This document shows, piece after piece, positions 37,055 to 52,685 of a stretch of DNA of 64,000 bases. This DNA comes from Calditrichia bacterium (GTDB taxonomy: Bacteria > Calditrichota > Calditrichia > RBG-13-44-9 > J075): positions 160,001-224,000 of the forward strand of contig JBOEGD010000018.1 in assembly GCA_050633245.1 (NCBI GenBank). Reading direction: 5' to 3'. A program made the position numbers and the translations under genes. The notes below the pieces were generated by a model. It saw only the letters and a program-made list of their open reading frames with translations. It ran no database searches and was not told the origin of the DNA. Position 1 is the first letter of the stretch. Each line of letters begins with the position of its first letter.

Positions 37055-37061
37055 GGGAACT

Positions 37062-38408
37062 ATGGCAATATCAAGATTACTTGAGGTAGGGAAGCGCTCA
37101 CTGATCTCTTCACAGAGTGCGATCAATACGACAGCAAATAATATTGCGAACGTTAATACTCCCGGCTATACGCGTCGCAGGACTAATTTATATAATGTAA
37201 CGCTGAACGGGCAAATTGGCATCGGTGTTTCTGCCGACGATATTAGTCGAATTCATCAGGGCTTTGTTGATCAACAATTATGGAAAGAGAATCACGGCCT
37301 GGGCAATTATGAAACCCGTTCACGAGTATTAAGTCAGATGGAAGCGGCTTTCGCCGATTCTTCTGATGCCGGTATTCGAACTGCGCTGGAAGAGTTTTGG
37401 AGTAGTTGGAACGATTTAGCCGACGATCCGGAAAGTGGCGCTGCACGTGAAATTGTTCGGAGCCATGGGGAAAAACTGGCTCGTTCGTTTAACAATACTC
37501 ACAGTAGTCTGCGTACGCAGCAACAGCAATCTGTTCGGGAACTGGAATTGCAAATTGATGATGTAAATCTTCTGACAAGCCGGATTGCCTCACTCAATAC
37601 TGAAATCACAAGATCTAACACCCCCGATCTGCTTGACGAGAGGGACCGCTTGATTTCCGATTTGTCTGCAAAGATTAATATAAACGTGCGTGAAGGTGAT
37701 AACGGCGCACTTAATCTTTCTGTTAACGGAATCAATTTGGTAAGCGGTGGTGAGTCTCTTGATTTACATTCGACAACACAAAGCGAGAATGGTCTTTTGA
37801 GTACAGCTATAACCGTTGCCGATTTTGAGAAACCATTAGAAGGACTATCCGGAGAAGCCGGCGCATTGCTGGATCTGGTAAATAATCAAATTTCGGGGTA
37901 TTTGCAAAAATTGGATACCCTTGCAAGTGGAGTAGCAGAAAGTGTGAACGCACTTCATGTTAATGGAATGAATTTGGATGATATAACCGGATTGAACTTT
38001 TTCGCCAATGCCGCAAATGGGGCAGCAGCAATCGAGGTGGCCCCGGAAATTTTGGCAGATGCCGGACTTATTGCCACGCGAACCGCCGGTAGCGGCAGCG
38101 GGAATAATGACATTGCAAGACAAATAAATGAATTGCAGTACGATAACAGCTTTGATAGTCAAACTGCCGCCGGTTTTTTCTCGGAAATGCTTAGCGGGCT
38201 TGGGAACCAACTTCAGGAGTCTCGTGCCCAGGAAAATAGCCAGCAGCTGATAACCGGCGAACTTTTGAGTCAAAAGACCTCGATCTCTGGTGTCTCTCTG
38301 GATGAAGAAATGACCCAACTTGTGCAATACGAACAGTCCTATGAGGCCGCGGCACGATTAGTTAGAACTGTTGATGAGCTCATGGATACGCTGCTAAGCA
38401 TTGTATAA
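37062..38408 (+). CDS. flgK: hook-associated protein FlgK
   Basis: NNIANVNTPGYTR, LLDERD.LI..LS, SGVSLDEEM..L..Y. Confidence 0.95.
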   Translation: MAISRLLEVGKRSLISSQSAINTTANNIANVNTPGYTRRRTNLYNVTLNGQIGIGVSADDISRIHQGFVDQQLWKENHGLGNYETRSRVLSQMEAAFADSSDAGIRTALEEFWSSWNDLADDPESGAAREIVRSHGEKLARSFNNTHSSLRTQQQQSVRELELQIDDVNLLTSRIASLNTEITRSNTPDLLDERDRLISDLSAKININVREGDNGALNLSVNGINLVSGGESLDLHSTTQSENGLLSTAITVADFEKPLEGLSGEAGALLDLVNNQISGYLQKLDTLASGVAESVNALHVNGMNLDDITGLNFFANAANGAAAIEVAPEILADAGLIATRTAGSGSGNNDIARQINELQYDNSFDSQTAAGFFSEMLSGLGNQLQESRAQENSQQLITGELLSQKTSISGVSLDEEMTQLVQYEQSYEAAARLVRTVDELMDTLLSIV

Positions 38409-38446
38409 CAGGAATATTTATAACCTTAAGGATTGAGGAAAATAAA

Positions 38447-39328
38447 ATGCGTGTAACACAACAAAATATGGTTCGTCAGGCCTTGTTGCGGCTGGAAGAG
38501 CGCAATGAAAATATGGATCGGCTCTCCCGGGCAATTTCAACGGGAAAAGACGTTGTCAACCCGTCTGATTCGCCCAATAGATATCATCGTTCGGCGCGGA
38601 TGAAAGAAACATTAATGCAGCACGAACAGCATTCGAAAACAATACAAAATTCTCTTGCCTGGTTACAAACCTCTGAAGAAGCTCTGGTGACGTTGAATGA
38701 CCTTGCATTAGAGGCAAGGGATATTGCATTTAAAGGAGCGGATGCAACTACCGACGATTCTGTCCTTGCAAGTCTGGCCGAAAGAATTGGTGGTATTCTC
38801 GATGAGACGATTGACGTTTTTAATAGCAACTATCTTGGCAAAGCCGTTTTCGCCGGAAGTGATACAGATTTGAGTACGCCGTTTGAACTGACAAATGGAC
38901 AAGTTGGCTATGCCGGTAATGGTGATGGTTTACAGCGTTCGGTTGGCAGCAGCATGAAAGTAATGATCAATGTGTCGGGTGAAGAGCTTCTGAATACCGG
39001 GTTGTCGACAGCCTTATTAGACTTACAGGCGGCGCTGCAAAGCCAGGATCGAACGGCTATAAGTGAGACAATTGATGGCTTAAAGAATGCTTCAGAAAGT
39101 GTGTTGTCGCTTTCGGCATCGGTTGGCTCACGTCAATCTATTCTTAATTCGACGCTTCGTCGTATTGAATCAATAGACCTAAATCTGGCTTCGTTTATTT
39201 CCGATGAAGAAGATACAGACCTGGCCGAAGCAATAGTGAAGCTGGAGTCTGAACAAAATGCCTATAGTGCAGCGCTAAGAACAACAGCTGATATTACGCA
39301 GCTAAACATCATGCAATACTTCAGATAA
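38447..39328 (+). CDS. flgL: hook-associated protein FlgL
   Basis: MRVTQ, STGK.V..PSDSP, G..VFAG, EDTDLAEAI, Y.AAL. Confidence 0.93.
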   Translation: MRVTQQNMVRQALLRLEERNENMDRLSRAISTGKDVVNPSDSPNRYHRSARMKETLMQHEQHSKTIQNSLAWLQTSEEALVTLNDLALEARDIAFKGADATTDDSVLASLAERIGGILDETIDVFNSNYLGKAVFAGSDTDLSTPFELTNGQVGYAGNGDGLQRSVGSSMKVMINVSGEELLNTGLSTALLDLQAALQSQDRTAISETIDGLKNASESVLSLSASVGSRQSILNSTLRRIESIDLNLASFISDEEDTDLAEAIVKLESEQNAYSAALRTTADITQLNIMQYFR

Positions 39329-39354
39329 TCTGATTGGAACCGGGAATTGCAAAA

Positions 39355-40251
39355 ATGAACGGGTACGCAAATGAGCAATATGCCGCTTCCCTGTCGGAAT
39401 TTGGTAGTTTACTACATTTGCCTGCTGCCGGTGGCTGGCTGATAAAAAGAGAAATACCGGAAACGAATTATTCTGATGCGATGGGTTTGTATCCGCTGTT
39501 TCAATGCAACGATTGGCAGGCTCTGGAAAAAGACTTTGAATGGTTGAGGGAAGTGGTTTCGAGTATCGTCTTGGTGTGTGATCCCCTCGAACAGGTATCG
39601 GTTGAGCAACTCAAAGACCTATTTCCGGATTGCTGCAATGCGTTTAAACAACACTTTCTTATCGATCTTAATCTGAAACCGGAGAATTTTGTTTCTTCTC
39701 ATCATCGGTATTATTCCCGGTATGCCACGAAACGATGCAGCATACAACGTGAACCGTATTCAGCAGAATGCCTGACAGATTGGATGGCTCTGTATCAAAA
39801 CTTGATCACGCGCCAGAATATCATCGGAATCCAGTGTTTCTCGGAAGAAGCGTTTCGGCAGCAGCTTCAAATGGAAGACATAGACATCTTTACTGCACGT
39901 GCAAATGGCAGCGTGGTAGGTATGCAGCTTTGGATTCGCCATCAAGACAGGGCATATCATCATCTGAGCGCATATAGCGAAGCTGGATATGCGAATCGTT
40001 GCTCTTATGGATTGTTGTGGAGGGCAATTCAAGAGTATAAAAAAGCAGATTATAGCTGGTTAAACCTGGGGGGAACGGCAGGTGCTGTTGCTTCTCAGAA
40101 TGGACTGGCGGCATTTAAAAAAGGATGGTCTACAACTGCAGAAACGGCCTGGCTGTGCGGCAAAATTCTTTGCGCTGACTCCTACCGGCGGCTTATGGAT
40201 CGAAGAGGTACTAAAGCAACATCATATTTCCCTGCTTACCGTGCAGGGTAA
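39355..40251 (+). CDS. GNAT/FemAB-like acyltransferase
   Basis: AYHHLSAYS..GY, LNLGG, GLAAFKKGW (Fem-type C-terminal motif); alternative TTG start at 39334. Confidence 0.7.
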   Translation: MNGYANEQYAASLSEFGSLLHLPAAGGWLIKREIPETNYSDAMGLYPLFQCNDWQALEKDFEWLREVVSSIVLVCDPLEQVSVEQLKDLFPDCCNAFKQHFLIDLNLKPENFVSSHHRYYSRYATKRCSIQREPYSAECLTDWMALYQNLITRQNIIGIQCFSEEAFRQQLQMEDIDIFTARANGSVVGMQLWIRHQDRAYHHLSAYSEAGYANRCSYGLLWRAIQEYKKADYSWLNLGGTAGAVASQNGLAAFKKGWSTTAETAWLCGKILCADSYRRLMDRRGTKATSYFPAYRAG

Positions 40252-40277
40252 ACTTAATCGGGAGTAAAGAATACAGC

Positions 40278-41309
40278 ATGGCAGTTCGCGTACCACAATT
40301 TTCCCGCAATGTTTTGCTAGAGCGGTTGTTGAATAGATTGAACAGTGAAATCGTTCGCTTGCCGGACGATGACTATGATGCAAAAAGCCGATTTAAGCAT
40401 CCGCTTGTGTTTTTGGTCGGTTGTCCAAGAAGTGGTAGCACTCTAATGCTTCAATGGCTTGCGTCATCCGGGAAGTTTGCCTTCCCTGATAACTTCATGT
40501 CGAGATTTTATAAGGCACCGTTTGTTGCCCTGTTAATTCAGGATATGTTGTTTAATCCTGCCTATCAGTTTCGTAATGAATTTTCCGACTTTAACGTACA
40601 AACCTCCGACTTTGCTTCTGTTTTAGGAAAAACCAGCGGTTCTCTTTCGGTCAATGAATTCTATTACTTTTGGCGTAACTATCTGCCTGCTTCATGTGAA
40701 TACCCATCCGCTGAGGAGATGCAGCGTTTTCAGTTAAGGAACGCCAGATTCGAGATCAGTCGTATTCTCGATTATCAAAATCGACCATTTGTTTGCAAGG
40801 GGCTGCTGTTCAATCACGTTCTGCCTGAGATTGCAAGTTTCTTTCCGGAAGCTGTTTTTATCAATATTGAACGGGATCCCTTTTTTACTGCGCAGTCTCT
40901 ACTACAGGCACGTGAAACATACTGGGGAGAACGCAACTCATGGTACTCATTTGCCATTCCGGAAAAACAGTCTTTACTGAGTAAAAATCCACTGGAGCAG
41001 GTGGCGGGACAAGTCTTATTAACTAAAGAAGCTGTGAAGCGTGGACTAGCGCGGATTTCGCCGGGAAGGCAGTTGACCGTAGCATATGAAGAACTGTGTG
41101 ATTCTCCGAAAAAAGTTTGGAAGAAAATCATGCCGTTATTGTCCCTTGATTGTTCGAAACAAAGCCTGCATTATTCGGGGCCGGACGGTTACGAAAACGG
41201 AAACTTTCTGCGATTTTCCGTGCAGGAAAGGGAAGAGCTGTGCACCTATCTTGGGAAATTTACCAGGGACATGACGCATAAAAAAAAGGTATTTGAAGAT
41301 GCAATATAA
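40278..41309 (+). CDS. PAPS-dependent sulfotransferase 1
   Basis: 5'-PSB loop GCPRSGST; 3'-PB motif RDPFFTAQS; YEEL..P. Confidence 0.88.
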   Translation: MAVRVPQFSRNVLLERLLNRLNSEIVRLPDDDYDAKSRFKHPLVFLVGCPRSGSTLMLQWLASSGKFAFPDNFMSRFYKAPFVALLIQDMLFNPAYQFRNEFSDFNVQTSDFASVLGKTSGSLSVNEFYYFWRNYLPASCEYPSAEEMQRFQLRNARFEISRILDYQNRPFVCKGLLFNHVLPEIASFFPEAVFINIERDPFFTAQSLLQARETYWGERNSWYSFAIPEKQSLLSKNPLEQVAGQVLLTKEAVKRGLARISPGRQLTVAYEELCDSPKKVWKKIMPLLSLDCSKQSLHYSGPDGYENGNFLRFSVQEREELCTYLGKFTRDMTHKKKVFEDAI

Positions 41310-42303
41310 CTTTCTGATTTGCTCTGAACGCTCAGGAAGCAATCTCTTTACGCGTTTAATGAACGGTCATTCGCAAGTCTGTGGGCCTTCACCGACACAT
41401 CTTTGCCGTCACTTATGGGAAAATCGATCTGCTTATTGCGCTCTCGATGAGGATGAAAACTGGCAGCGGTTAACAGAAGACGGCGAATCACTTTTCCGTA
41501 CGATGACCGGCGTTTGGAAATCCGACTGGGCAACGGATAGGATTAATGCACTCACAAAGCGTTCACTCGCCGAACTGTTGCGAACGGTGTTTCAGCACGA
41601 AGGACAGGCTAACAATAAATCTACTGTGCTAATAAAGGAAAACCACGCCTGGCGAATGCTTGATCTGCTGTGGGATATTCAGCATGATGCGCGGTTTATC
41701 TGGTTGGTGCGCGATCCCCGTGATATGGCATTGTCCTGGAAACGTTCTCCCATATTGCGTCGCGGGGTAATTCGCGCCGGGCAGATCTGGAAGGAAGATC
41801 AGCAGCAAATGTTGTTGTTAGCCGACCGGGTTTTTACAACAGAAAATTTGATTCAAGTCCACTATGAAAAACTGGTTTCTGCACCTGAAGAAACGCTTAC
41901 ACGCGTTTGCGATTTTTTAAATTTGAATTTTGAGCCGTCTATGCTAACGAAAAGCTCTCGGGCAGGTAATACCCTGCTTGCTTCCCGAGCGACGGACTGG
42001 AAAAATCTTGCTGGCCCATTGTTAAGTAATAATTTCGGAAAATATCGCACGGGTCTTACAGAAGAGGAAATATGCTATCTGGAGCAACTTTGTGGTGATG
42101 AAATGGTACAGCTCGGATACTCGCTTGATATGGATAAGGGGATGAATGTTGAAGATCTGGAACAACTGATATCGCCGCTTGAGCTTTATGATAAACCCGG
42201 CTACCAGAATGTGCCAGAGGAAGAAAAGCAGATACGATTGGCACGTGCTGAAGTTGTGGGCAAGATAAAAAAGCGAGCACTAACACTGGAAATGGCAACA
42301 TGA
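41299..42303 (+). CDS. PAPS-dependent sulfotransferase 2
   Basis: SERSGSN loop; LVRDPRDMALSW; YEKLVSAPEETL.RVCDFL; alternative TTG start at 41293. Confidence 0.88.
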   Translation: MQYNFLICSERSGSNLFTRLMNGHSQVCGPSPTHLCRHLWENRSAYCALDEDENWQRLTEDGESLFRTMTGVWKSDWATDRINALTKRSLAELLRTVFQHEGQANNKSTVLIKENHAWRMLDLLWDIQHDARFIWLVRDPRDMALSWKRSPILRRGVIRAGQIWKEDQQQMLLLADRVFTTENLIQVHYEKLVSAPEETLTRVCDFLNLNFEPSMLTKSSRAGNTLLASRATDWKNLAGPLLSNNFGKYRTGLTEEEICYLEQLCGDEMVQLGYSLDMDKGMNVEDLEQLISPLELYDKPGYQNVPEEEKQIRLARAEVVGKIKKRALTLEMAT

Positions 42304-43265
42304 AGACGGCTGTCGGAGGATATTTTGAGCTAACGCTACCTCATCGTCAGGATTATCATCAGCGGGCGTTGAAATTGAACAGTGCGCGTAATGCGCTGCG
42401 TTATTATCTGGCACGAAAAAAAATCGATAAAATATTCCTTCCTTACTACATCTGCGATTCTCTTATCGAAGGACTGCGCAAAGATGGTGTAGAGTGCAGC
42501 TTTTTTAAGATCGACACGTTTCTCAGACCGATTCTACCTGCAGGTATTCATGCAAGAAAACCGGCACTAATCGTCAATTATTTCGGACTTAATATCTCCG
42601 ATTCTGTCGAAGAAGAGCATATCATAATCGATAACTCTCAAGCCTTTTTTACTCAACCTGCGCGAAAAACAATTTCTATATACTCCCCAAGAAAATTCTT
42701 TGGGCTTGCCGATGGTGGATTTCTGATTGGACAAGAGATGCATAGAGCGAAGCTTCGCGCATCGGTGTCATGGGAGCACTATCAGGCCCCACTCATGCGA
42801 ATTGAGTTACCGGCGGATGAAGGACTTTCGGCGTTTCGAAGAAATGAAAGGCGTCTCGCAAACGAACCGATTGCAGCAATGTCCCCTCTGACGGAGACGT
42901 TGTTGAAGAGCATCGATTACGAAGATTGTCGTAAGAGAAGAGAGTATAACTTCTCATGCTTACATCGGCGTTTAAAACACATTAACCAGTTAGAAATTAC
43001 TGATGAGGAACCGAAGGGGCCCCTGGCTTATCCGTTTTTATTCAACCGTCCCGGATTAACGGAATGGTTACGCCGGCAAAGAATTTTTTGCGCGGCCTAC
43101 TGGCCTGGGGTTTCAGACCGCGCGGCGAATAATAGCTGGGAAGCAAAGCTGGCGGCCTGCCTTACTCCTTTGCCGATAGATCATCGTTGGACTGATTCAG
43201 ATATGTCCAGAGTCTGTCTTGCCGTTGAAGCATTTCTTGCAAAAACCGGAGAAGAACATGTTTAA
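42300..43265 (+). CDS. divergent, shortened DegT/DnrJ-like PLP-fold protein
   Basis: VGGYFEL, SARNAL, LPYYICDS, VNYFG, IDNSQAFF, YSPRKFF..DGG. Confidence 0.65.
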   Translation: MKTAVGGYFELTLPHRQDYHQRALKLNSARNALRYYLARKKIDKIFLPYYICDSLIEGLRKDGVECSFFKIDTFLRPILPAGIHARKPALIVNYFGLNISDSVEEEHIIIDNSQAFFTQPARKTISIYSPRKFFGLADGGFLIGQEMHRAKLRASVSWEHYQAPLMRIELPADEGLSAFRRNERRLANEPIAAMSPLTETLLKSIDYEDCRKRREYNFSCLHRRLKHINQLEITDEEPKGPLAYPFLFNRPGLTEWLRRQRIFCAAYWPGVSDRAANNSWEAKLAACLTPLPIDHRWTDSDMSRVCLAVEAFLAKTGEEHV

Positions 43266-44535
43266 CAAGCAAAAGGCTTCTGATCTTGCCTATTTGGGAG
43301 GAGATCCGCTTTTTCATGAGAAGCTGCATGTTGGTGCTCCGAATCTTGGCAGTAAAGAGGCATTGTTTCAGCGGATCGAAGAACTTTATCGTACGAAGCG
43401 CCTGGCAAACCGTGGACCTTTTGTTCGCGAGCTGGAAGCTCGTTTGGCAGAGGAGATGGGGGTTAAACATTGTATTGCGATGTGCAATGGAACCATTGCA
43501 CTTGAGATTGCGATTCGTGCTTTGGGTATGTCCGGGGAGGTAATTCTTCCTTCTTTTACCTTTATTGCAACAGCCCATGCCTTGCAGTGGCAGGAGATAA
43601 CCCCGGTATTCTGCGATGTTGAGAAAGAGAACTATACCATCGACCCCCTAAAGGTTGAAGCCCTGATCACTCCCAAAACAAGTGGGATTATTGGTGTTCA
43701 CCTGTGGGCCCGGGCTTGCAAAATAGAGGCGCTTCAGGAAATAGCCAATCATCATAACCTGTGCCTGCTCTTTGACGCTGCGCATGCATTTAAGTGCAGT
43801 TACAAAAAACAAATGATCGGCAGTTTTGGCGATGCAGAGGTGTTCAGTTTTCATGCCACCAAGTTCTTTAATACGTTCGAGGGTGGAGCTATTGCAACAA
43901 ACAGTGAAGAACTTGCTGAGAAGATCAGATTTATGCAAAACTTCGGATTTGTAAGCAAGGATCAGGTCGACTATCTCGGAATCAATGGTAAAATGAGTGA
44001 AATATCTGCTGCAATGGGACTCACCTCTCTGGAAAGTGTAGACTTATTTGTCGCGGTAAATAAACGAAACTACCAGCTTTATAAACAGGGGCTTGCTGGT
44101 TTGTCGGGCGTGCGCTTGCTCTCCTTCAGTGAAGATGAGTTGAGCAACAAACAATATATTGTATTGGAAATTGACGCAGCTGAATTTGGGCTTGGAAGGG
44201 ATTGTACTGTAAGTCTTCTGGAATCTGAAGGGGTTCTTGCAAGGCGCTACTTCTATCCCGGATGTCATCAGATGGAGCCCTATCGCTCGTATTTCCCCAA
44301 TGCCGGCTTGCTTTTGCCCGAAACCGAGCGCCTGGCAAAACGTACGCTTTGTTTACCAACCGGGATGGCAATCGATGCCGATCATATCTCCGGCATTTGC
44401 AAACTCCTGCACTTTTTCCAGGCACATCATCAGGAAATTACAGCCGAGTCCGGCGATCAGGGACATAAAATAACCCCATCATTTGCGGAATACGAACGGC
44501 GGATTAGCCGCGACACATATATTGAGGAGCTATAA
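43258..44535 (+). CDS. DegT/DnrJ/EryC1/StrS sugar aminotransferase (VioA/DesI-like)
   Basis: CNGT.AL, PSFTFIATAHA, FDAAHAF, SFHATKFFNTFEGG (PLP lysine), GINGKMSE. Confidence 0.92.
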   Translation: MFNKQKASDLAYLGGDPLFHEKLHVGAPNLGSKEALFQRIEELYRTKRLANRGPFVRELEARLAEEMGVKHCIAMCNGTIALEIAIRALGMSGEVILPSFTFIATAHALQWQEITPVFCDVEKENYTIDPLKVEALITPKTSGIIGVHLWARACKIEALQEIANHHNLCLLFDAAHAFKCSYKKQMIGSFGDAEVFSFHATKFFNTFEGGAIATNSEELAEKIRFMQNFGFVSKDQVDYLGINGKMSEISAAMGLTSLESVDLFVAVNKRNYQLYKQGLAGLSGVRLLSFSEDELSNKQYIVLEIDAAEFGLGRDCTVSLLESEGVLARRYFYPGCHQMEPYRSYFPNAGLLLPETERLAKRTLCLPTGMAIDADHISGICKLLHFFQAHHQEITAESGDQGHKITPSFAEYERRISRDTYIEEL

Positions 44536-44537
44536 CA

Positions 44538-47500
44538 ATGCAAGACGAACTAGCCAATAAAATGATATTGCTGAATATCGGCAGCGGGAGTCATAAATTG
44601 CCCGGCTTTATAAATATCGACCTCGAAAATGGAGCGGATATTGTTTGGGATGTTAGAAAAGAGCTCCCATTTGACGATGCAAGCGTTGATGGAATTTATA
44701 GTGAGCACCTAATTGAACATCTAACTCAAGCTGAAGGTGCACGATTTTTACGCGAATGTCGACGAATATTAAAACCCGGCAGGCAAATGCGGTTGGCGGC
44801 ATCGGACCTTGATCACATAATTCCACAATACGGACAAGAAGAATGGCGTGCTGAAAGTACAATGATTCAACGCCAAGGCTGGAACTGGGTAGACAATACC
44901 TGTGAACAGCTAAATTTGTTGATGCGTTCCGGACGGCATCAATGGATATACAATGAAGAGGAGATGCGCAGGCTTGCAGAAACCGCGGGTTTTAAGTTTT
45001 CCTGTAGATGCGAATACGGTAAATCTGAAGAGAGTGTGTTTCAAAATCTGGAACAGCGGGCAGAATCGCTTCTTATTTGCGAATTTCAGAGACCGGAATT
45101 TCAAATTTCAGATACTCCGGGATTGGTTAGTATACTTATCCCTGCTTATAAAGCAGACTTTTTTGCTGCATGTCTGTCCAGTGCTCTGGAGCAGGACTAT
45201 CCTTCGCTTGAAATCATTATTTGTGATGATAGTGAAGGAGGTGAAGTTGAGCAGCTTGTAAAACAGAACGATGACGAGCGTATTCGCTATGTAAAGAATG
45301 AGGTGAATATTGGGGGGCGCAAAAATTATTTGCAGTGTTTTGATCTCGCCAGGGGCGATTATATAAAATTTCTCAATGACGATGATATCCTGTTACCCGG
45401 TTGTGTAAGCAAAATGGTCGCAGCGATTGAAGAGTATCCGCAAGCGACACTGATAACTTCCCACCGTCAACTAATTGATGAATCCGGCCAATCGCTACCG
45501 GATAAACGGTATAATAAAAGGCCGGTTGAAACCTCGGCATTAATAACCGGTGTTTCCGCAGTAGATACGCTTCTCACGTCTTCCCTTAATTACATAGGCG
45601 AACCGACTACTACCTTGTTCCGACGATCGGATATCGATGGAACGAAACCGAACATTTTTAGCTTTGGCGGGCGGGAAGCGCTGCGAAACGGCGATGTAAC
45701 GATGTGGGTAAGCTTGCTTAGCAAGGGAGATTTGATCTATCTGCACGAAACCCTAAGCTATTTCCGTTTACATGATAAGCAGGTTCAGTGCTCGCAAGAG
45801 TATCTTTCCAAAGCTGCCAAAGCCTGGGAACAAATCCGCTTTGACGCAACCCGTATGGGATTTTTGCATCCTGAATGGAGCACGGTGCTGGAAATTAGTG
45901 AATTAGCGACTTTGCAGCATGAAGCAAAGCTTAATGGAATTCCGGATGCAGAGCAAACCGGACTTCCGAAACTGATTCTTCTTCCGACCGAAGGACAGGT
46001 TCAACCGGATCGCCCGGAAAAATTACAGCAGTTATTAACGGATGGAGCTCTCCCGACAGCTGTCCGGGAAGACTGTGAATTGAGCAGTGAACAGGAAAAT
46101 GAACTGTCGGAATGTATTGAAAAATTGCTGAATGGAGAGATTGATAATGCTCTTGAGAAGATAATGGGTTTGCTGCGACAAAAACCGGCTTCCAAGGATG
46201 TGCTTTATGCGATGTTTAATATCTTAAAGCAGCTGAACTCAGTTAGCAAGGCGCTGACTTATTTAAACAAGCTGATTATACTTCACCCGGATTTTGCACC
46301 GGCATTTGATGAAGTCGGTTTGCTACAGCAGGCAGACGATCGATTTGAAACGGCTGTAGAGTGGTTCCACCATTCGATTTCCCTTGATCCAGACTGCCGT
46401 GAAACGAAACTGCACTACGCAGATTGCTTATTGCATTTGGGTAGGGGAGAGGAAGGATTGAGGCTTCTGGAAAGCCTGGCAAATAATGGCGATGATACCG
46501 ACGCTGCAGCGCTGCTGCTGGTAGACTGGTATGCTCGCTTAAAGCGCTTTACATCGGCAGTGAACAAGATCCAGGAAGTGTTAACAAAGAACCCCGATAA
46601 TCAAGCTGCTATAGAGCTGTTGTTGAAATTAGATCAGCAGCTGGATGAGCATCAAAGCACCCAGGCGTCTCCCGTTCAATCTGTTAACAATACAACTTTA
46701 TCACTGTCTAAATCGGCTGCCGGCTCGAACGCTACGGACAAGAATGACGGGCCGATTTTTGTAGTAGGGTCGCCGCGCTCGGGAACCAGTGTTTTGTCAC
46801 AGTCGCTCGGTAAACATTCTCAAACCGGTCTTGGACCGGAATCAAACTTCCTGCGACCATTGGTTCAAGCTTTTGATATTGCTTACGATTTATCAACCAA
46901 ACGAGGCATTCACCATTGGTTGTCTAATAAAGGTGTGAGCAAGGAAGAGTTTTTCGAAAAGCTGGGTACAGGTGTAGACCTGCTTTTTAAAAGTAAATTA
47001 GACCAGCAACGGTGGATCGATCAAACACCTGAGTACACTCGCTGTCTAAGCGAGTTGAACATGTTATTGCCAACCGCTCACTTTGTTCACATTGTTCGGG
47101 ACGGTCGTAAAGTTGTGCACTCCATGATGAATAGTGGTTTCGATTCACCATGGTCTTCTGATTTTAAAGCAGCCTGCCTTACCTGGAAAGAGTTTGTGTT
47201 GAATGGGCTGGAGTTTGAACGCACCCATCCCGAAAGAATTATTCGGGTTTATAATGAATCAATAACACAAGAGCCTGCCGGAGAATTGGCAACGATTCAG
47301 CGTAAATTGGCATTGCCCTTCGAGGAAGCGACAACCCATTTTTACTCATCTGGTATTAAAATTAATTCATCGTTTGGCGGAGATGAGGAAGAAAAGGCTG
47401 ACTGGCGTACAAAATGGAGCGCTCAGCAACGGTCGGTTTTTAATGAAATTGCCGGCAGCTTGCTGATAGCTCTGGGGTATGAGGCAGATGCTTCATGGGT

Positions 47501-50500
47501 ATCTGGGCCGCAGAAAGAGGAGCCGCCTTTCCTACAGTCTCATAAATCACTGCAAGAGATTGTCGCTGATTTACATACTCAATCGGAGACCATCAAACCT
47601 GCAAATGAGCCTGTGGAAGAACAACGAAAAAAAGTCAGCATTGTAATACCGGTATTTAATAAGCTGGAGCTTACACATGCCTGTTTAAAGACTGTGTTAG
47701 AGCATACTGCGTATCCTAACTATGAAGTTATTGTTGTAGACAATGGTTCAACGGATGATACCGCAAACTATTTGAAGAAGGTATCTGAACCGCGGATAAG
47801 TTCTGTTTTTTCTTCCGAAAATAATGGTTATGTGGGTGGTTGTAATGCTGGCGCAGAGGTAGCCAAGGGCGATTTCTTACTCTTCTTGAATAATGATACA
47901 GAAGTAGAACCTGGTTGGTTGACTGCACTTGTAGATACAATGGATGACCATTCAGATTGTGGTGCTGTAGGGTCTAAACTGGTGTATCCAAACGGAGCTC
48001 TACAGGAAGCAGGTGGTATCATCTTCTCGGATGGCAACGGATGGAATTTTGGCAGAAATATGCTTGCTGAAGATCCACGATTTAACTACTTACGCGAGGT
48101 AGATTACTGCTCGGGTGCAGCGCTTATGGTACGTCGTAATTTGTGGGATGAGTTGGGCGGTTTTGATGAACGTTACGCGCCGGCATATTATGAGGATACT
48201 GACCTATGCTTTGGTGTGCGCAAGTTGGGCTACAAAGTATATTATCAACCCAACAGTGTCGTTGTGCATCTTGAGGGACAAACTGCCGGTGTTGATTTAC
48301 AGAGTGGATTTAAGAAATATCAGGTGATCAACAAGCAAAAGTTTGTAGAGAAGTGGAAGCATGAACTGGCAAATCAGTATAGCAATGACCCAAAGAATGT
48401 GCTTCACGCCGCGAATCGTGGAAGTCGCCAGAGCATTTTGATTGTCGATCCAACCTTGCCTTTCTTTGATCGTGCCTCTGGCGGGCTGCGCCTGTTTCAA
48501 ATAGTTGAAATGTTGCTGGAGATGAATTTTCATGTCTCCTTTCTCTCAATTAGTCCGGGTATGAGACAAACCTATCGTCCTATTTTACAAAATATGGGAG
48601 TTGAAGTCTTTGCCGGATACTGGAAAACGCCGCGTAAATGTGGATTTGAATATGAGGATAACGATCCCTCTGAATTCTATCAGAAATTTTTGGCAGAACG
48701 GCAATACGACTATGCTATGCTGAACTTCTGGGAGGTTGGTGAAAAGTTTATTCCGGCTATTCGCGAATTCTCACCAACGACCCGTATCTTTGTAGACAGT
48801 GTCGACATTCACTTTGTGCGCGAGTTGCGTGAGGCTGAGTTAAACGAAGATCCAGCGGCGACACAAAGAGCATTAGCGAAGAAGGAACTCGAACTGGCTG
48901 TGTACCGGCAGGCAGATCGTTTGTTGGTTGTAACCGAAACCGATCGCCAAGCCGTGGAAGAGCAGCTGGAAGGTATCCCGATAGATATTGTACCGAATAT
49001 TCACCGGCAAATTGATGTTGCGAAAAATTATGCTGATAGTGCTAATTTACTTTTTGTTGGAAATTTTCATCATCCGCCCAATAAGGATGCTGTGGAATTT
49101 TTCTGTGCCGAGGCTTTCCCGAAAATACTCCGGGAACAACCCGATATCAAGCTTTTCATTGTCGGGAACGGCTCCCAAAACGCCGTTGGACATCTCGAAT
49201 CTTCCAATGTACTGGTTCTTGGATATGTTGAAGATTTAGGAGTATTGTTAAAGAAAGCACGTATCTCGGTAAATCCATTGCGATTTGGAGCGGGCATGAA
49301 GGGGAAAATCGGTGAGGCTCTCTCCTGGGGATTGCCGGTCGTGACCACACATGTTGGCGCAGAAGGCATGAAGCTGGAAGATGAACATCACGCATTGATT
49401 GCCGATTCGGCAGAGGAATTTGCCGATGCGGTGCTACGTTTATATAATGACGAAAATCTGTGGAAAAGACTCTCTGTCGGCGGGCGCGAGCATGTGAAAG
49501 CCAACTGGGGAAAAGGACATACCTTCAGAAAGCTACAGGAGGTATTCAGCGTCGCTCCAGAAAAGGAAATGCGTGTTGTCACTACTGCTTCTGCTAAAAA
49601 GCCGCTTGTTTCTATTGTTATACTAACGTGTAATGCACTCGAATATACAATGCAATGTGTCGAGTCTATCCGGAAGACAACCTCTGTTGATCATGAAATA
49701 ATCTTTGTTGATAATAAGTCTACCGACAGTACGGTGGATTACTTGCAGAAGCTTACTGAAGAGAATGCCCACTACAAACTGATATGCAATGAGGAAAACC
49801 GTGGCTTTGCGGCCGGAAACAATCAGGCCGTTGCTGTGGCAAGCGGGCGATATGTACTTCTGCTAAACAATGACGTTGTGGTTAACGGTGGTTGGCTGGA
49901 AGGGTTAGTAGAGAGTATTGAAATGGATGAGCTGATAGGTACGGTTGGTCCGATAACCAATCGCATCAGCGGTAAGCAAATGGTGGCAGAGGTTCCGTAT
50001 GAAGATCTTACCGGCTTTCCCGGCTTTGCTGAACAGGTTCGACGGGCAAATAAAGGAAAAGTGACTCCCCGCCGTCGAATTGCCGGTTTTGCTATGCTGA
50101 TGAAAAAAGAACTCTATAATGAGCTTGGTGGATTTGATGAAGATTTCGGAAACGGCAACTTTGAAGACGATGATCTTTGTCTGCGTATACGGGAAAAAGG
50201 TTATGCGGTAATGGTTGATGAGAGCATTTACATTCATCATTTTGGTAGCAGAACTTTCATCGCAAATAATATGGATTATCAGGCTTCATTGCAGGAAAAA
50301 GAAGACGTGTTTAAGCAAAAATGGCCCGCTGTAGATTACCAGAACCTCCTTGAACGAGATCGATCCTTAGCAGAAGAACACAACATAGTTTTGGAAGATG
50401 CTACCGGGCTTTTAGCAAAAGGCGACCTACAACCGGCTGAGCTGCTTTTTAAAAATGTCTTGGCAGAAAACCCACTCAATATTGATGCGCTGTACGGACT

Positions 50501-50945
50501 GTCAATTATAGAAAAGTGGCAGCAAAATACCGATGATGCTTTAGAAAAATTAGAGCGAATTGTTCGGCTGGATGTGCGTTTTGCGCCAGCCTATAACGAT
50601 ATCGGGGTTATCTTCAAGGAGCGCGATCAACTATCTGAAGCGCTTGAGATGTTTAAAAAGTCTCTGGAGATTGAGCCGAATTTTACCGAAGCCAAATTGA
50701 ATGTCAGTGAGACGCTTATTTTGCGAGATGAGTACGAAAACGGTATCCAGGTGCTGTATGCAATTTTAGCGGAGCAGCCGGATAATAGTTCTGCCTTGCT
50801 GTATCTTGCACAAATCTATCTTGCAATAGAGCAGTATGGGGAAGCTGAAAAACAAATTCGTCGAGTGCTGGAACTTGAACCTGATAATACCTGGGGCAAA
50901 GAGTTGCAACTCCAGTTGGAAAGCAACGCAGGTATAGCAAAATGA
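44538..50945 (+). CDS. 2135-aa multidomain enzyme: SAM methyltransferase, GT2, TPR, sulfotransferase, GT2, GT4, GT2, TPR
   Basis: LNIGSG..SEHLIEHL; VSILIPAY..CDDS; TPRs; PIFVVGSPRSGTS..VRDGR; VSIVIPVFN..DNGS; GAGMKGKIGEALSWGLPVVTT; VSIVIL..DNKS..FEDDD; TPRs. Confidence 0.9.
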   Translation: MQDELANKMILLNIGSGSHKLPGFINIDLENGADIVWDVRKELPFDDASVDGIYSEHLIEHLTQAEGARFLRECRRILKPGRQMRLAASDLDHIIPQYGQEEWRAESTMIQRQGWNWVDNTCEQLNLLMRSGRHQWIYNEEEMRRLAETAGFKFSCRCEYGKSEESVFQNLEQRAESLLICEFQRPEFQISDTPGLVSILIPAYKADFFAACLSSALEQDYPSLEIIICDDSEGGEVEQLVKQNDDERIRYVKNEVNIGGRKNYLQCFDLARGDYIKFLNDDDILLPGCVSKMVAAIEEYPQATLITSHRQLIDESGQSLPDKRYNKRPVETSALITGVSAVDTLLTSSLNYIGEPTTTLFRRSDIDGTKPNIFSFGGREALRNGDVTMWVSLLSKGDLIYLHETLSYFRLHDKQVQCSQEYLSKAAKAWEQIRFDATRMGFLHPEWSTVLEISELATLQHEAKLNGIPDAEQTGLPKLILLPTEGQVQPDRPEKLQQLLTDGALPTAVREDCELSSEQENELSECIEKLLNGEIDNALEKIMGLLRQKPASKDVLYAMFNILKQLNSVSKALTYLNKLIILHPDFAPAFDEVGLLQQADDRFETAVEWFHHSISLDPDCRETKLHYADCLLHLGRGEEGLRLLESLANNGDDTDAAALLLVDWYARLKRFTSAVNKIQEVLTKNPDNQAAIELLLKLDQQLDEHQSTQASPVQSVNNTTLSLSKSAAGSNATDKNDGPIFVVGSPRSGTSVLSQSLGKHSQTGLGPESNFLRPLVQAFDIAYDLSTKRGIHHWLSNKGVSKEEFFEKLGTGVDLLFKSKLDQQRWIDQTPEYTRCLSELNMLLPTAHFVHIVRDGRKVVHSMMNSGFDSPWSSDFKAACLTWKEFVLNGLEFERTHPERIIRVYNESITQEPAGELATIQRKLALPFEEATTHFYSSGIKINSSFGGDEEEKADWRTKWSAQQRSVFNEIAGSLLIALGYEADASWVSGPQKEEPPFLQSHKSLQEIVADLHTQSETIKPANEPVEEQRKKVSIVIPVFNKLELTHACLKTVLEHTAYPNYEVIVVDNGSTDDTANYLKKVSEPRISSVFSSENNGYVGGCNAGAEVAKGDFLLFLNNDTEVEPGWLTALVDTMDDHSDCGAVGSKLVYPNGALQEAGGIIFSDGNGWNFGRNMLAEDPRFNYLREVDYCSGAALMVRRNLWDELGGFDERYAPAYYEDTDLCFGVRKLGYKVYYQPNSVVVHLEGQTAGVDLQSGFKKYQVINKQKFVEKWKHELANQYSNDPKNVLHAANRGSRQSILIVDPTLPFFDRASGGLRLFQIVEMLLEMNFHVSFLSISPGMRQTYRPILQNMGVEVFAGYWKTPRKCGFEYEDNDPSEFYQKFLAERQYDYAMLNFWEVGEKFIPAIREFSPTTRIFVDSVDIHFVRELREAELNEDPAATQRALAKKELELAVYRQADRLLVVTETDRQAVEEQLEGIPIDIVPNIHRQIDVAKNYADSANLLFVGNFHHPPNKDAVEFFCAEAFPKILREQPDIKLFIVGNGSQNAVGHLESSNVLVLGYVEDLGVLLKKARISVNPLRFGAGMKGKIGEALSWGLPVVTTHVGAEGMKLEDEHHALIADSAEEFADAVLRLYNDENLWKRLSVGGREHVKANWGKGHTFRKLQEVFSVAPEKEMRVVTTASAKKPLVSIVILTCNALEYTMQCVESIRKTTSVDHEIIFVDNKSTDSTVDYLQKLTEENAHYKLICNEENRGFAAGNNQAVAVASGRYVLLLNNDVVVNGGWLEGLVESIEMDELIGTVGPITNRISGKQMVAEVPYEDLTGFPGFAEQVRRANKGKVTPRRRIAGFAMLMKKELYNELGGFDEDFGNGNFEDDDLCLRIREKGYAVMVDESIYIHHFGSRTFIANNMDYQASLQEKEDVFKQKWPAVDYQNLLERDRSLAEEHNIVLEDATGLLAKGDLQPAELLFKNVLAENPLNIDALYGLSIIEKWQQNTDDALEKLERIVRLDVRFAPAYNDIGVIFKERDQLSEALEMFKKSLEIEPNFTEAKLNVSETLILRDEYENGIQVLYAILAEQPDNSSALLYLAQIYLAIEQYGEAEKQIRRVLELEPDNTWGKELQLQLESNAGIAK

Positions 50946-52315
50946 GAGTCGAAACTTCGCAAAGTAGAAATACCTTATCTGTTTGCATGATTGTTAAGAA
51001 CGAGGAGCGATATCTTGGAGATTGCCTCTCGAGCATACAGGCAGTCGCAGATCAACTTATAGTCGTCGATACCGGCTCTGCAGATAACACCATTGCAATT
51101 GCGGCTGATTTTGAAGCGGAGGTCTATCACTTTAAATGGTGTGATGATTTTGCTAAAGCCCGCAATGAGTCTATTCAATATGCAACCTGTGATTGGATTC
51201 TCTGGCTGGATGCGGATGAAAAACTTTCGTCAGAATCGATCTCTGAGCTTCGCTCACTTATGAAGAAGGAAAGTGGTCCGGTTGCGTACAATATTCAGAT
51301 TGACAGCGTAGTAAAAGGTGCCAGTCATTTGTCTACTGCACATCGATTGTTTACCAATAACTATGGGATTTCATTTGAAGGAAGAATCCACGAGCAAATT
51401 TCCTATAGTCTGTTTGCGCTTGGAGGAGAGGAGCGTTTTTCAACCGTACTGTTGCAACATATAGGATATGATAATGCCTATGTAGAGCAGGCTGGAAAGG
51501 CAAAGCGCAATCTCAGCCTTCTGAAAAAAATGATTGCCGACGATCCTGCCAATCGCTATGCCCACTATACTCTTGGACAGCAATATGGTTTACTGAGAGA
51601 TCATAAATCGGCTGTAAAGCATTTTCGTAAGGCAATGCGTGGAAACGTTTTTGAAAAGGCTATGCGTGTGTCATTATTAAATGCTATGGCAGAATCGCTG
51701 ATGGAACTCAAACAATTCGATGAAGCCGGGATTCTGTGTAAAAAATCGCAAGGCCTGGTTGCCGAGCAGGTCGGTGTCTATTTAATTGATTATCGCCTTG
51801 CGCTTCGTCAGGAAAACTATAGTGAAGCATTAGTGAAATTGAAAAGGCTCGCAGAAAAAAATCAGCTGCAATCTCATCAGAGAAAGTCTATCTCTACCGA
51901 TGTGAAAATACCTGAAATTAAGGTACTCCAGGAATTCACGGAATTATATAAACGGCTGGGATTAAAAGAAGAGCTTGAGGCTAACCTTGATAAACTACTA
52001 AGCTGCGACCCGGTAAATGAAAAGGCGTTGGCGATGCGCATTCAGCTGGACGTGGAATGCGGTCGGTTTAATGATGCAGAAAATTGGCTTTTGAAGCTCC
52101 ATAGCATCAACAAGGCACATCCTCTGTATCGCAACCTTATGGGAGCTGTACTTATTAAATTGCAGAAGTTTGAGCAGGCAATCGACTTTTATGAGCGGGA
52201 GCTGGAGGAGCAACCCGGCGACGTGCTGTTGATAAAGAGGCTTGTTGGACTACATGCGAAATTGGGACATGTTGGAGTTGCGAATACACTGGCACTTCAA
52301 CTTACGCCGGAGTAA
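50942..52315 (+). CDS. GT2 + TPR glycosyltransferase (GmaR/SunS-like protein glycosyltransferase)
   Basis: LSVCMIVKNEE, VDTGSADNT, WCDDFAKARN, WLDADE, FEGRIHEQ, H.GY; C-terminal TPRs. Confidence 0.9.
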   Translation: MRVETSQSRNTLSVCMIVKNEERYLGDCLSSIQAVADQLIVVDTGSADNTIAIAADFEAEVYHFKWCDDFAKARNESIQYATCDWILWLDADEKLSSESISELRSLMKKESGPVAYNIQIDSVVKGASHLSTAHRLFTNNYGISFEGRIHEQISYSLFALGGEERFSTVLLQHIGYDNAYVEQAGKAKRNLSLLKKMIADDPANRYAHYTLGQQYGLLRDHKSAVKHFRKAMRGNVFEKAMRVSLLNAMAESLMELKQFDEAGILCKKSQGLVAEQVGVYLIDYRLALRQENYSEALVKLKRLAEKNQLQSHQRKSISTDVKIPEIKVLQEFTELYKRLGLKEELEANLDKLLSCDPVNEKALAMRIQLDVECGRFNDAENWLLKLHSINKAHPLYRNLMGAVLIKLQKFEQAIDFYERELEEQPGDVLLIKRLVGLHAKLGHVGVANTLALQLTPE

Positions 52316-52502
52316 TCTCATTAACGATCTGGTCCAGAATGTCATCGAACATTTTATCTAAATGAGACCGTTTTACTTTCCATTGCCCACCTAATTTTAT
52401 CGCCGGAATTTTACGCTGTTGCACCATGCGATAAACGGTTTGTTCATTTAACTGCAAGTAAGCAGCGACATCCTTTATAGACATAATTTCATTTTCAGGC
52501 AT
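52302..52502 (-). CDS. Xis/BldC-like helix-turn-helix DNA-binding protein (HTH_17)
   Basis: MSIKDVAAYLQLNEQTVYRMV...IPAIKLGGQWK. Confidence 0.88.
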   Translation of the reverse strand: MPENEIMSIKDVAAYLQLNEQTVYRMVQQRKIPAIKLGGQWKVKRSHLDKMFDDILDQIVNEITPA

Positions 52503-52685
52503 ACCGGCCTCGATGCAAATATTGACTCATAGTAGCTAATGGACTTTTATACTATTATCGTCCGAGGAAGCACCAGCATAAGTGGATTTGCCAATATTAT
52601 CTGCAGTTTATTGCCCTATCGTTTCCAGAAGTTAGTAATTTCCAAATGGATTAGTAAATGTAAACAACATGCGCTAAGTTTTACG

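Follow-up and report, generated by a model that had tools for sequence, protein, structure and literature searches.

A candidate flagellar glycosylation island with three sulfotransferase domains downstream of flgL in a Calditrichia bacterium

Results

Gene content of the island

The DNA analysed here (the window) is a stretch of 64,000 nucleotides from a Calditrichia bacterium (GenBank assembly GCA_050633245.1, contig JBOEGD010000018.1, forward-strand positions 160,001 to 224,000), the + strand of which carries a near-complete flagellar regulon, as assigned by Pfam searches of its open reading frames (ORFs). Behind flgL lie seven co-oriented + strand ORFs, here called g1 to g7 (39355-52315), which are best classed as a flagellar glycosylation island furnished with a cassette for sulfation. 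The two preceding flagellar genes, the seven island genes and the domains of the very large g6 product are as follows (aa, amino acids; GT, glycosyltransferase; TPR, tetratricopeptide repeat; PAPS, 3'-phosphoadenosine 5'-phosphosulfate; PLP, pyridoxal phosphate).

37062-38408, + strand: flgK, hook-associated protein 1; TIGR02492 314.7 bits against a cut-off of 170.75, Pfam FlgK_D1
38447-39328, + strand: flgL, hook-filament junction protein; NCBIfam TIGR02550 155.1 bits against a cut-off of 127.2
39355-40251, + strand: g1, FemX-like/Acetyltransf_6 GNAT-fold transferase; PF13480 41.5 bits, cut-off 22
40278-41309, + strand: g2 (ST1), stand-alone PAPS-type sulfotransferase; Sulfotransfer_3 (PF13469) 62.1 bits
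41299-42303, + strand: g3 (ST2), stand-alone PAPS-type sulfotransferase; PF13469 81.5 bits
42300-43265, + strand: g4, divergent, short (321 aa) DegT-like fold-type-I PLP protein; profile-profile comparison
43258-44535, + strand: g5, DesI/VioA-like nucleotide-sugar 4-aminotransferase; PF01041 (DegT_DnrJ_EryC1) 341.2 bits
44538-50945, + strand: g6, soluble multi-enzyme protein of 2135 aa; three GT2, GT1/GT4, Sulfotransfer_3, Methyltransf_11 and two TPR blocks by Pfam
44559-45092, + strand: g6 domain 1 (aa ~8-185), class I S-adenosylmethionine methyltransferase; Methyltransf_11 33.9-36.5 bits, Methyltransf_23
45120-45947, + strand: g6 domain 2 (aa ~195-470), GT2a; Pfam
46185-46667, + strand: g6 domain 3 (aa ~550-710), TPR block a; TPR_19, TPR_14
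46752-47327, + strand: g6 domain 4 (aa 739-930), sulfotransferase ST3; PF13469 91.7-94.6 bits
47634-48323, + strand: g6 domain 5 (aa 1033-1262), GT2b; PF00535 108.5 bits
48435-49577, + strand: g6 domain 6 (aa ~1300-1680), GT-B fold of GT1/GT4 type; Glyco_trans_1_4 100.1 bits at aa 1503-1638
49605-50282, + strand: g6 domain 7 (aa ~1690-1915), GT2c; PF00535 81.1 bits
50355-50942, + strand: g6 domain 8 (aa ~1940-2135), TPR block b; TPR_19, TPR_2, TPR_1
50942-52315, + strand: g7, GmaR/SunS-like GT2 with C-terminal TPR; Pfam GT2 and TPR

The TAA of flgL ends at 39328 and the ATG of g1 stands at 39355, leaving a spacer of 26 nt, and the genes that follow are either separated by short gaps (g1/g2 26 nt, the largest, and g5/g6 2 nt) or overlap, as is the case at four of the six internal junctions (g2/g3 by 11, g3/g4 by 4, g4/g5 by 8 and g6/g7 by 4 nt). 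The start codons used were ATG 41299 for g3 (alternatively TTG 41293) and ATG 43258 for g5. A previous interpretation made without database searches (the sequence-only reading) had described seven co-oriented, tightly packed and mostly overlapping genes starting 26 nt after flgL, with which the ORFs and the sequence agree.

Three sulfotransferase domains

The two stand-alone sulfotransferases and the third domain within the giant fusion, all proposed earlier from the sequence, exceed the curated PF13469 cut-off of 27 bits and keep the PAPS-loop residues (the RSG(S/T) loop and the R...S motif), and all three are predicted to be PAPS-dependent sulfotransferases. Family-invariant positions include G48, R51, S52, G53 and T55 (in the loop GCPRSGSTL), R199 and S207 of ST1, and E10, R11 and G13 as well as R138, D139, P140, R141, D142 ... 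S146 of ST2, while ST3 carries the motifs GSPRSGTSV and HIVRDGRKVVHS and retains RDGRKVVHS. The best solved relatives are the CurM sulfotransferase (E 1.1e-18 for ST2 and 2.4e-07 for ST1) and tyrosylprotein sulfotransferase (TPST; 1.6e-10 and 5.6e-05). With the CurM/OLS domains and TPSTs, ST1 and ST2 have in common a PRSGS-type loop and an RDP...S motif, presumably the 5'-phosphosulfate loop and the 3'-phosphate motif, respectively; those enzymes act on acyl-ACP or protein tyrosine, whereas the genomic partners of ST1 and ST2 are sugar-nucleotide enzymes. The use of PAPS is also fitted by genes that adjoin related cassettes (see below), namely cysNC (adenosine 5'-phosphosulfate kinase) in loci L043, L055 and L065, cysQ in L055 and L065, and cysD in L065.

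Amino-sugar enzymes

The sequence-only reading had listed two PLP aminotransferase-like proteins, of which g5 is recognised by Pfam. Its best solved relative over the full length (residues 5-400) is PDB 2po3 (E 8e-113), deposited as a "4-dehydrase" and taken by us to be DesI, followed by perosamine synthetase (2.7e-53); the best NCBIfam model by far is TIGR04427 (PLP_DesI), the next being PseC with 194 bits. The predicted product of g5 is dTDP-4-amino-4,6-dideoxy-D-glucose.

The assignment of g4 comes from profile-profile comparison and from structural neighbours in the Atlas, as no match was obtained in Pfam (PF01041 included), NCBIfam or a single-sequence PDB search, and its profile found PLP enzymes in the PDB at E ~0.3 only, which is unusable alone. 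A profile of 16 family members aligned by hhalign with the DegT aminotransferase family over 284 columns (96.75% probability, E 3.1e-10), such that K132 (in SPRK) falls on the Schiff-base lysine and D111 (in DNSQAF) on the cofactor-binding aspartate of DAAHAF. S129, R131, K132, G135 and G139 are invariant in the family, and the Atlas neighbours are named as DegT family (TM score 0.91). The classification of g4 as a remote, shortened DegT relative holds on these comparisons.

For g1, a single-sequence PDB search gave nothing significant and a family profile was required: built from 13 members, it matched FemX structures at E 1.1e-11, in the C-terminal GNAT domain only. The Atlas structural neighbours are GNAT/FemAB clusters (FemAB-annotated, TM 0.87), some of them fused to PglD-like or formyltransferase domains acting on sugar amines, which we regard as a lead only. 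We propose that g1 is an N-acyl or N-aminoacyl transferase for a 4-amino sugar. For the Fem/GNAT acyltransferase named in the sequence-only reading, the GNAT fold is thus supported and a Fem relationship probable, and the group transferred may be an amino acid instead of acetyl. With a DesI-like g5, a Fem-like g1 and an intact methyltransferase domain in g6 (see below), the parts expected for an N-acylated, methylated 4-amino-6-deoxy sugar are predicted to be present.

The giant fusion g6 and the GmaR-like g7

Pfam supports the earlier description of g6 as a giant multi-glycosyltransferase fusion, with the domain order methyltransferase-GT2-TPR-sulfotransferase-GT2-GT4-GT2-TPR. The possibility that its methyltransferase is truncated, raised by a Pfam match to the second half of the model only, was rejected, and the domain is considered whole because motif I (LNIGSG) is present at aa 12-17. 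In the GT-B domain the Pfam match likewise covers the C-terminal half only, and L001 and L011 conserve the domain over its whole length. Homologues of g6 in Calditrichota have shuffled architectures, with 1802 aa and no sulfotransferase domain in L001, at least 2907 aa with such a domain in L011, and 1391 aa in L003. Domains like GT2a (E 1e-65 to 1e-79) adjoin an aminotransferase, a FemX-like protein, ST1 and ST2 in nine loci outside Calditrichota (L005, L006, L009, L012, L013, L017, L025, L029 and L038), where Pfam detects a C-terminal TPR on the GT2a-like protein in L025 only; since this type travels with the cassette in other phyla, GT2a probably transfers the modified sugar.

The GT2-TPR protein recognised earlier, g7, has Listeria GmaR as its best solved relative (22ao_A, E 1e-29, aa 9-199), followed by the peptide S-glycosyltransferase SunS (7.4e-24); against the NCBIfam SunS family model it scores 94.6 bits, below the cut-off. 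Its homologues directly adjoin flagellin genes in L066 and in L046 and L052. We propose that g7 is the initiating protein O-glycosyltransferase.

Absence of membrane and export functions

The sequence-only reading had envisaged a cytoplasmic pathway lacking Wzx, other export genes and an initiating phosphoglycosyl transferase, and the searches made here came to the same result. No hydrophobic 19-residue segment scoring at least 1.6 is present in g1-g7, while the controls FlhA, MotA and FliP gave 8, 4 and 7, respectively. Among the window's ORFs of at least 50 aa, a phmmer search with 39 queries (E<=1e-3) found no homologue of Wzx or Wzz, and Pfam found none either; Wzy, an ABC exporter, an initiating phosphoglycosyl transferase and a synthase-type membrane GT2 were likewise without a Pfam match in the window, which also contains no WbqC homologue.

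Related loci in other genomes

Relatives of ST2 numbered 489 at E<=1e-3, the nearest being 51% identical. When one genome of each species was scanned with an alignment of 35 ST2 sequences, 176 matches were confirmed, and 80 loci (L001-L080) were kept, the ORFs of which were searched with the window proteins and then with flagellin, FliD, FliS, FlaG, WbqC, RmlA/B, Wzx, Wzz and Cys queries from Pfam-annotated loci. All seven island proteins have homologues in related loci (E 1e-60 to 0), making the island more than a chance assembly. A sugar aminotransferase lies within 7 kb of ST2 in 57 of the 80 loci, a second sulfotransferase gene within 3 kb in 52, and the g4 family is an optional member (15/80). 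Forty-three loci have a WbqC-family gene and 20 a FemX-like gene, so that 63 have one or the other and none has both. Because the two never co-occur beside ST2 and show no detectable homology, they suggest two unrelated solutions to the same step; remote homology between WbqC (PF08889) and FemX-like g1 was considered and rejected at an hhalign probability of 0.45%, and the WbqC profile found no relative in the PDB. In L045 the slot is occupied by an ATP-grasp gene.

Flagellar structural genes were found in 17 of the 80 loci (13 of the 39 that have 8 kb or more of flanking sequence on each side) and Wzx/Wzz in 13 (6 of the 39), both being lower bounds, as phmmer was run with few query proteins; in no locus were the two combined, and in 50 neither was detected.

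Flagellar contexts

The gene order flgF-G-A-H-I-J-(N)-K-L-g1-ST1-ST2-(g4)-g5-giant-(g7) is repeated in the Calditrichota metagenome-assembled genomes (MAGs) of L001, L002, L003 and L011, and the whole island therefore follows flgL in four of six Calditrichota loci, the contigs of the other two (L004 and L010, 2.6 and 3.4 kb) being too short to judge. FlgG of the Calditrichota loci is 66-71% identical to that of the window, which points to a Calditrichota-like organism whose species is missing from the set. In two Calditrichaceae MAGs (L002:7969-9981 and L003:7958-9979), a single ORF of ~670 aa uninterrupted by stop codons spans the FemX-like and ST1-like parts, possibly a natural acyl transferase-sulfotransferase fusion.

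A gammaproteobacterial MAG (L018) has the order flgK-flgL-[PPTase, other strand]-g1-ST2-g4-ST1-g5-1562-aa multi-GT2-flagellin-flaG-fliD, in which flgL scores 298 bits against TIGR02550. Its island proteins are 34-55% identical to those of the window, about as close as the Calditrichota ones (35-68%), while its FlgG (46%) and FlgK (29%) are much further away, and this comparison suggests that the island was transferred between phyla.

Elsewhere, too, the cassette adjoins flagellin genes. Three Neptuniibacter loci (L056, from N. marinus ATR 1.1, L057 and L068) read fleQ / rmlB rmlA aminotransferase WbqC sulfotransferase ST2 / GT41-TPR fliS fliD flaG flagellin. In Marinobacter mangrovi (L060) the cassette stands beside flagellin genes with an HMW1C-like transferase, and Pontibacillus salicampi (L066) has flagellin, a g7-like GT2-TPR, GT2, WbqC, sulfotransferase, ST2, rmlA, aminotransferase, rmlB, flaG, fliD and fliS. 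In Balneolaceae (L044, L045 and Fodinibius roseus DSM 21986, L059), TPR-GT41-methyltransferase-GT2-GT1 fusions of 1264 to more than 2000 aa adjoin the cassette and flagellins. Further flagellar loci belong to Ideonella (L046 and L052), L048 and Arenimonas (L070). A TPR-linked or HMW1C-like transferase is present in 16 of the 17 flagellar loci, and flagellin, flaG, fliD or fliS directly flank the cassette in 12 loci beyond Calditrichota and L018.

Polysaccharide and other contexts

The loci with Wzx, Wzz or GT4 genes at their side (L030, L037, L049, L053, L055, L064, L065, L067, L069, L072, L075, L077 and L079) include that of Marinobacter santoriniensis (L072), with Wzz, rmlB, GT56, a hexapeptide acyltransferase, rmlA, aminotransferase, WbqC, ST1, ST2, a Wzx flippase and GT2/GT4 genes, and that of Aquibacillus sediminis (L065), with Wzx, aminotransferase, rmlAB, WbqC, sulfotransferase and ST2, then cysD, cysNC, a sulfate symporter and cysQ. 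Directly after the cassette, L065:11007-16442 makes up a complete local set for PAPS supply and recycling.

A maximum-likelihood tree, made rapidly from 81 ST2 sequences, joins the window to L001 as a pair (97% SH-aLRT), and on it flagellar and polysaccharide contexts interleave, with at least six switches among 31 labelled rows; two Bacillaceae, L065 with Wzx and L066 with flagellar genes, are sisters (99% SH-aLRT). Since it is found in both flagellar and Wzx/Wzz loci and the contexts interleave on the tree, the cassette looks like a portable sugar-modifying unit that is not flagella-specific. For the window's version, the position after flgL and the soluble, TPR-bearing, GmaR-like transferases speak for a flagellar role. 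The sequence-only reading would have been refuted if homologous islands usually sat in LPS or S-layer loci unlinked to flagella; on this point the survey gave a mixed answer that is favourable on balance, in that the whole island follows flgL (four of six Calditrichota loci) or lies between flgL and flagellin (L018), whereas the cassette alone is found in Wzx/Wzz loci (13 of 80) as well as in flagellar ones (17 of 80).

In Shewanella waksmanii (L054:14031-20840), where no flagellar gene or Wzx was detected in the locus, WbqC, g4, ST1, ST2 and a Sulfotransfer_4 gene adjoin a repeat protein of more than 2270 aa (Ig-like/He_PIG/FG-GAP), which is a possible alternative glycoprotein target.

Transcription and boundaries

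In the window the regulon runs motAB, a sigma-54 activator, flgBC, fliF-K, flgDE, a second motAB, fliL-R, flhBAFG and fliA, followed by two ORFs without a family, flgFGAHIJ, flgN, flgK and flgL. All gaps from flgF (32063) to g1 are shorter than 50 nt. The earlier remark that no obvious promoter or terminator separates the island genes was corroborated: over the region 36000-55500 (19.5 kb), sigma-70-like sites occur at chance level (31 against 31.8 +/- 7.6 expected), and terminator-like hairpins, which exceed chance (35 against 18.9 +/- 4.5), are absent from gene junctions, all + strand hairpins within the island falling in coding sequence. The sigma-28 consensus TAAA-N14-16-CCGATA has no match in the 64-kb window, so no class III promoter can be assigned. 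The following motif is a candidate start for a unit running from flgF to g7.

32025-32039, + strand: sigma-54-like motif TGGCA-N7-TTGC, intergenic, 24 nt upstream of flgF; loose pattern

A twin motif of sigma-54 type lies at 4665-4679, intergenic before flgB and directly after the gene for a sigma-54 response-regulator activator (3152-4522); the loose pattern has 13 matches in the window against 9.1 expected, and no further + strand match occurs between flgF and 52315 save a weak one inside flgL (39076). The island is probably co-transcribed with flgFGAHIJ-flgN-flgKL, and a transcript of ~20 kb from flgF to g7, starting near the motif at 32025-32039, is plausible on this arrangement. The GC content is flat over the island and its surroundings (0.43-0.47). 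Downstream, the island is closed by a gene that is convergent with g7 and overlaps its stop by 14 nt.

52302-52502, - strand: HTH_17 gene of 66 aa, excisionase-type helix-turn-helix; PF12728 57.1 bits against a cut-off of 27

The next + strand gene, starting at 52539, encodes a GHL10-family protein.

Three further features of the window may be mentioned. The ORFs between fliA and flgF (29978-31850) are two overlapping + strand frames of 385 and 285 aa with TTG starts and a 143-nt overlap, matching no Pfam or NCBIfam family apart from a weak PAS_8 match (E 4e-4), and may represent flagellar genes particular to the lineage or a single gene that was called incorrectly. The flagellar cluster holds two separate motA-motB stator pairs (1515-3029 and 17409-18899, by Pfam). 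On the - strand beyond the island there is a Septu-type anti-phage pair (56041-58124), the genes of which overlap by 4 nt.

56859-58124, - strand: PtuA-like AAA_15/AAA_21 ATPase; PADLOC PtuA 183.5 bits
56041-56862, - strand: PtuB-like HNH nuclease; PtuB 215.2 bits

Discussion

A proposed pathway

Taken together, the gene content points to a sulfated glycan on a flagellar protein as the product of the island, a conclusion drawn from sequence comparison to which we would give a probability of about 0.6. An O-linked oligosaccharide would be assembled in the cytoplasm, where PAPS is found, on a flagellar protein. The DesI-like g5 would aminate C4 of dTDP-4-keto-6-deoxyglucose (supplied by RmlA/RmlB encoded elsewhere), after which the FemX-like g1 would acylate, possibly aminoacylate, the 4-amino group. 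ST1 and ST2 would then sulfate the sugar or its N-acyl side chain, probably at the level of the nucleotide sugar. Since the genes move together between pathways that use different transferases and carriers, the cassette most likely finishes a nucleotide-activated sugar in the cytoplasm. The GmaR-like g7 would start the chain on Ser/Thr of an unfolded flagellar protein, and g6, its TPR blocks holding the protein substrate, would extend it with three GT2 and one GT4 domains, methylate it and add a third sulfate through ST3, with g4 serving an accessory step beside the main route. The outcome would be a strongly anionic, sulfated filament surface. The acceptor is most likely flagellin, encoded outside the window; because flagellin, fliD and fliS are all missing there, it is the gene neighbourhood that points to this acceptor. 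The flagellar sugar pathway proposed in the sequence-only reading is supported by sequence and synteny and agrees in each element open to sequence analysis, with the corrections that its sugar cassette is portable and that its acceptor is deduced indirectly.

A number of observations weigh against this interpretation. Within the 64-kb window there are no homologues of flagellin (beyond flgL), FliD, FliS or FlaG, nor of RmlA, RmlB, CysNC, CysD or CysQ; given the near-complete regulon, the filament genes must lie elsewhere in the genome, apart from the island. Two enzyme assignments fall below model cut-offs, g5 with 481 bits against the TIGR04427 equivalog cut-off of 650, and g1 with 19.4 bits against 24 for Pfam FemAB (PF02388), a family we take to belong to the same Pfam clan as Acetyltransf_6. 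Co-transcription with flgKL is deduced from spacing and one loose sigma-54-like motif. The cassette is not flagella-specific, being found in Wzx/Wzz polysaccharide loci in 13 of 80 cases, and the 50 loci with neither context detected include non-flagellated Bacteroidota (Tamlana, Flavobacterium, Crocinitomicaceae). Finally, loci of the Krumholzibacteria/Fibrobacteraceae type combine g1, an aminotransferase, a GT2a-like transferase, ST1 and ST2 amid unrelated genes, with no flagellar gene within 10 kb, as seen with crude gene calling (greedy longest ORFs in high-GC DNA), under which many of the family-less ORFs are probably spurious.

Alternative explanations

As such cassettes stand without flagellar neighbours, a different protein target is possible, and the island might glycosylate hook-associated or hook proteins, pilins, an S-layer, an adhesin, or act in general cytoplasmic O-glycosylation, its place after flgL then being due to common regulation or to an accidental insertion where an operon ends. 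The missing flagellin gene would be explained in this way, as would the GT2a-like cassettes lacking flagellar neighbours in L005, L006, L009, L012, L013, L017, L025 and L029, and TPR-glycosyltransferases are not limited to flagellin substrates. We consider this rather unlikely, as the island follows flgL in each of the four Calditrichota loci that extend far enough, in L018 it stands between flgL and flagellin, in 12 more loci the cassette has flagellin, flaG, fliD or fliS as an immediate neighbour, and the nearest solved relative of g7 is the flagellin transferase GmaR. Still less probable is that the genes build a sulfated surface polysaccharide (O-antigen, capsule or exopolysaccharide) with an incidental flagellar link. 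Sugar aminotransferase, WbqC/FemX-like protein, sulfotransferase and ST2 do occur together beside Wzx, Wzz or GT4s, and the interleaving on the ST2 tree, exemplified by the sisters L065 and L066, would agree with such a role; yet the window lacks every export and polymerisation function that was searched for, none of the seven proteins has a membrane segment, Wzx/Wzz and flagellar genes were combined in none of the 80 loci, and the TPR-fused and GmaR/SunS-like transferases point to a protein acceptor.

A further question concerns the acceptor atom, which could be a sugar hydroxyl, a side-chain hydroxyl or an amine. The sulfotransferases might spare sugar hydroxyls altogether and act on a hydroxyacyl or Ser/Thr side chain, on the 4-amino group (giving a sulfamate) or on flagellar tyrosines. 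In favour of this is that the best solved relatives of ST1 and ST2 are the CurM beta-hydroxyacyl sulfotransferase and TPSTs, and not known carbohydrate sulfotransferases, and that an N-linked side chain is probably present, since 63 of the 80 loci have a WbqC or FemX-like gene together with ST2. It is generally known, though, that kinship in fold does not determine which acceptor an enzyme of this superfamily uses, and the tyrosine variant fails to explain the co-inheritance of ST2 with a sugar aminotransferase (57/80) in both flagellar and Wzx loci, so that we regard this alternative as improbable overall; its side-chain and sulfamate variants are compatible with a sulfated flagellar glycan and differ from it in the acceptor atom only.

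Comparison with known systems

The flagellin glycosylation islands of Pseudomonas aeruginosa and P. syringae lie between flgL and fliC and encode a VioA-type viosamine pathway and Fgt glycosyltransferases. The present island resembles them in its position after flgL, a predicted cytoplasmic O-glycosylation, a DesI/VioA-like 4-aminotransferase, predicted N-acylation and O-methylation, and the absence of lipid-carrier export genes, and L018 reproduces the Pseudomonas-type order flgL-island-flagellin. It differs in that the transferases are fused into a 2135-aa protein and a FemX-like protein replaces the VioB-type acetyltransferases. We know of no sulfotransferase in the Pseudomonas flagellin islands, and a literature search found none. 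Position and logic match these systems, and the new part would be the three predicted PAPS-type sulfotransferase domains in a flagellar glycosylation island. In Listeria monocytogenes, GmaR is both a flagellin O-GlcNAc transferase and the anti-repressor of MogR; g7 is like it in its GT2 domain (E 1e-29, the catalytic domain being compared) and its C-terminal TPR region, whereas GmaR adds a single GlcNAc and g7 is one of five transferase domains predicted to build an oligosaccharide.

In the full-text literature outside subscription-only titles, no report was found in which a flagellin island of bacteria encodes sulfotransferases or bacterial flagellin bears sulfate esters, and the sequence-only reading's statement that no characterised flagellar island with three PAPS sulfotransferases was known is thereby upheld for the searchable literature. 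The relevant reports of sulfated motility filaments there concern, in the text available, archaeal N-glycans. The closest characterised parts list is that of the Clostridioides difficile type B flagellin locus (RT027/RT023), which is reported to contain several GT2 genes, one of them joined to a PF08241 methyltransferase, along with genes for rhamnose, a DegT-type aminotransferase, an ATP-grasp protein and a FemAB-like protein, and to make the O-linked glycan Fuc3N-Rha-Rha3OMe-GlcNAc-Ser, in which the amine of the terminal Fuc3N is capped with taurine, alanine and glycine (PMC5207246, PMC5207245); its authors describe the locus as being without a glycosulfotransferase (PMC5207246). Likened by these family descriptions, the two systems have in common GT2s and a methyltransferase, a FemAB-superfamily protein, a DegT aminotransferase and an amino-6-deoxyhexose. 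The C. difficile glycan carries a sulfonate (taurine) and its sugar comes from a 3-aminotransferase, in contrast with the three PAPS-type sulfotransferase domains and the 4-aminotransferase predicted here, and the ATP-grasp and ornithine cyclodeaminase proteins have no counterpart in the island. In Halobacterium salinarum, dedicated sulfotransferases are reported to sulfate the N-glycans of the S-layer and archaellin (PMC11980604). Likened by function, sulfate esters placed on a motility-filament glycan by dedicated sulfotransferases are a common trait, which for our island is predicted; the Halobacterium system is archaeal, N-linked and assembled on a lipid carrier, and its filament, the archaellum, is unrelated.

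Implications

The glycans of flagellin influence how filaments assemble and how phages adsorb, as well as the charge of the surface and recognition by the immune system. To our knowledge, those of bacteria are neutral, carry carboxyl groups (nonulosonic acids) or phosphate or, in C. difficile, a sulfonate. If the proposed pathway is correct, the island would add a strongly anionic modification to bacterial flagella. More tentatively, and with doubt prevailing, sulfated flagella might occur in Calditrichota and at least four other lineages (Balneolota, Gamma- and Betaproteobacteria, Bacillota) by way of a horizontally mobile four-gene cassette, working at the nucleotide-sugar level and pluggable into flagellin or O-antigen pathways. 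Its genes would encode a sugar 4-aminotransferase, either WbqC or a FemX-like protein, and two PAPS sulfotransferases, with the FemX-like version aminoacylating the amino sugar from aminoacyl-tRNA before sulfation. On this wider view, bacterial flagellins bearing sulfate and sulfotransferases that act on nucleotide sugars would both be the first of their kind, and a Fem-type enzyme would be at work outside peptidoglycan.

The cassette is recognisable and has cultured carriers, among them Fodinibius roseus DSM 21986, Neptuniibacter marinus, Marinobacter mangrovi and Pontibacillus salicampi, and its soluble sugar sulfotransferases and Fem-like amino-sugar acylase may be of interest for glyco-engineering if the island acts as its genes suggest. 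The repeated switching of the cassette between flagellin and O-antigen loci is a clear case of modular exchange between the two main surface-glycan systems.

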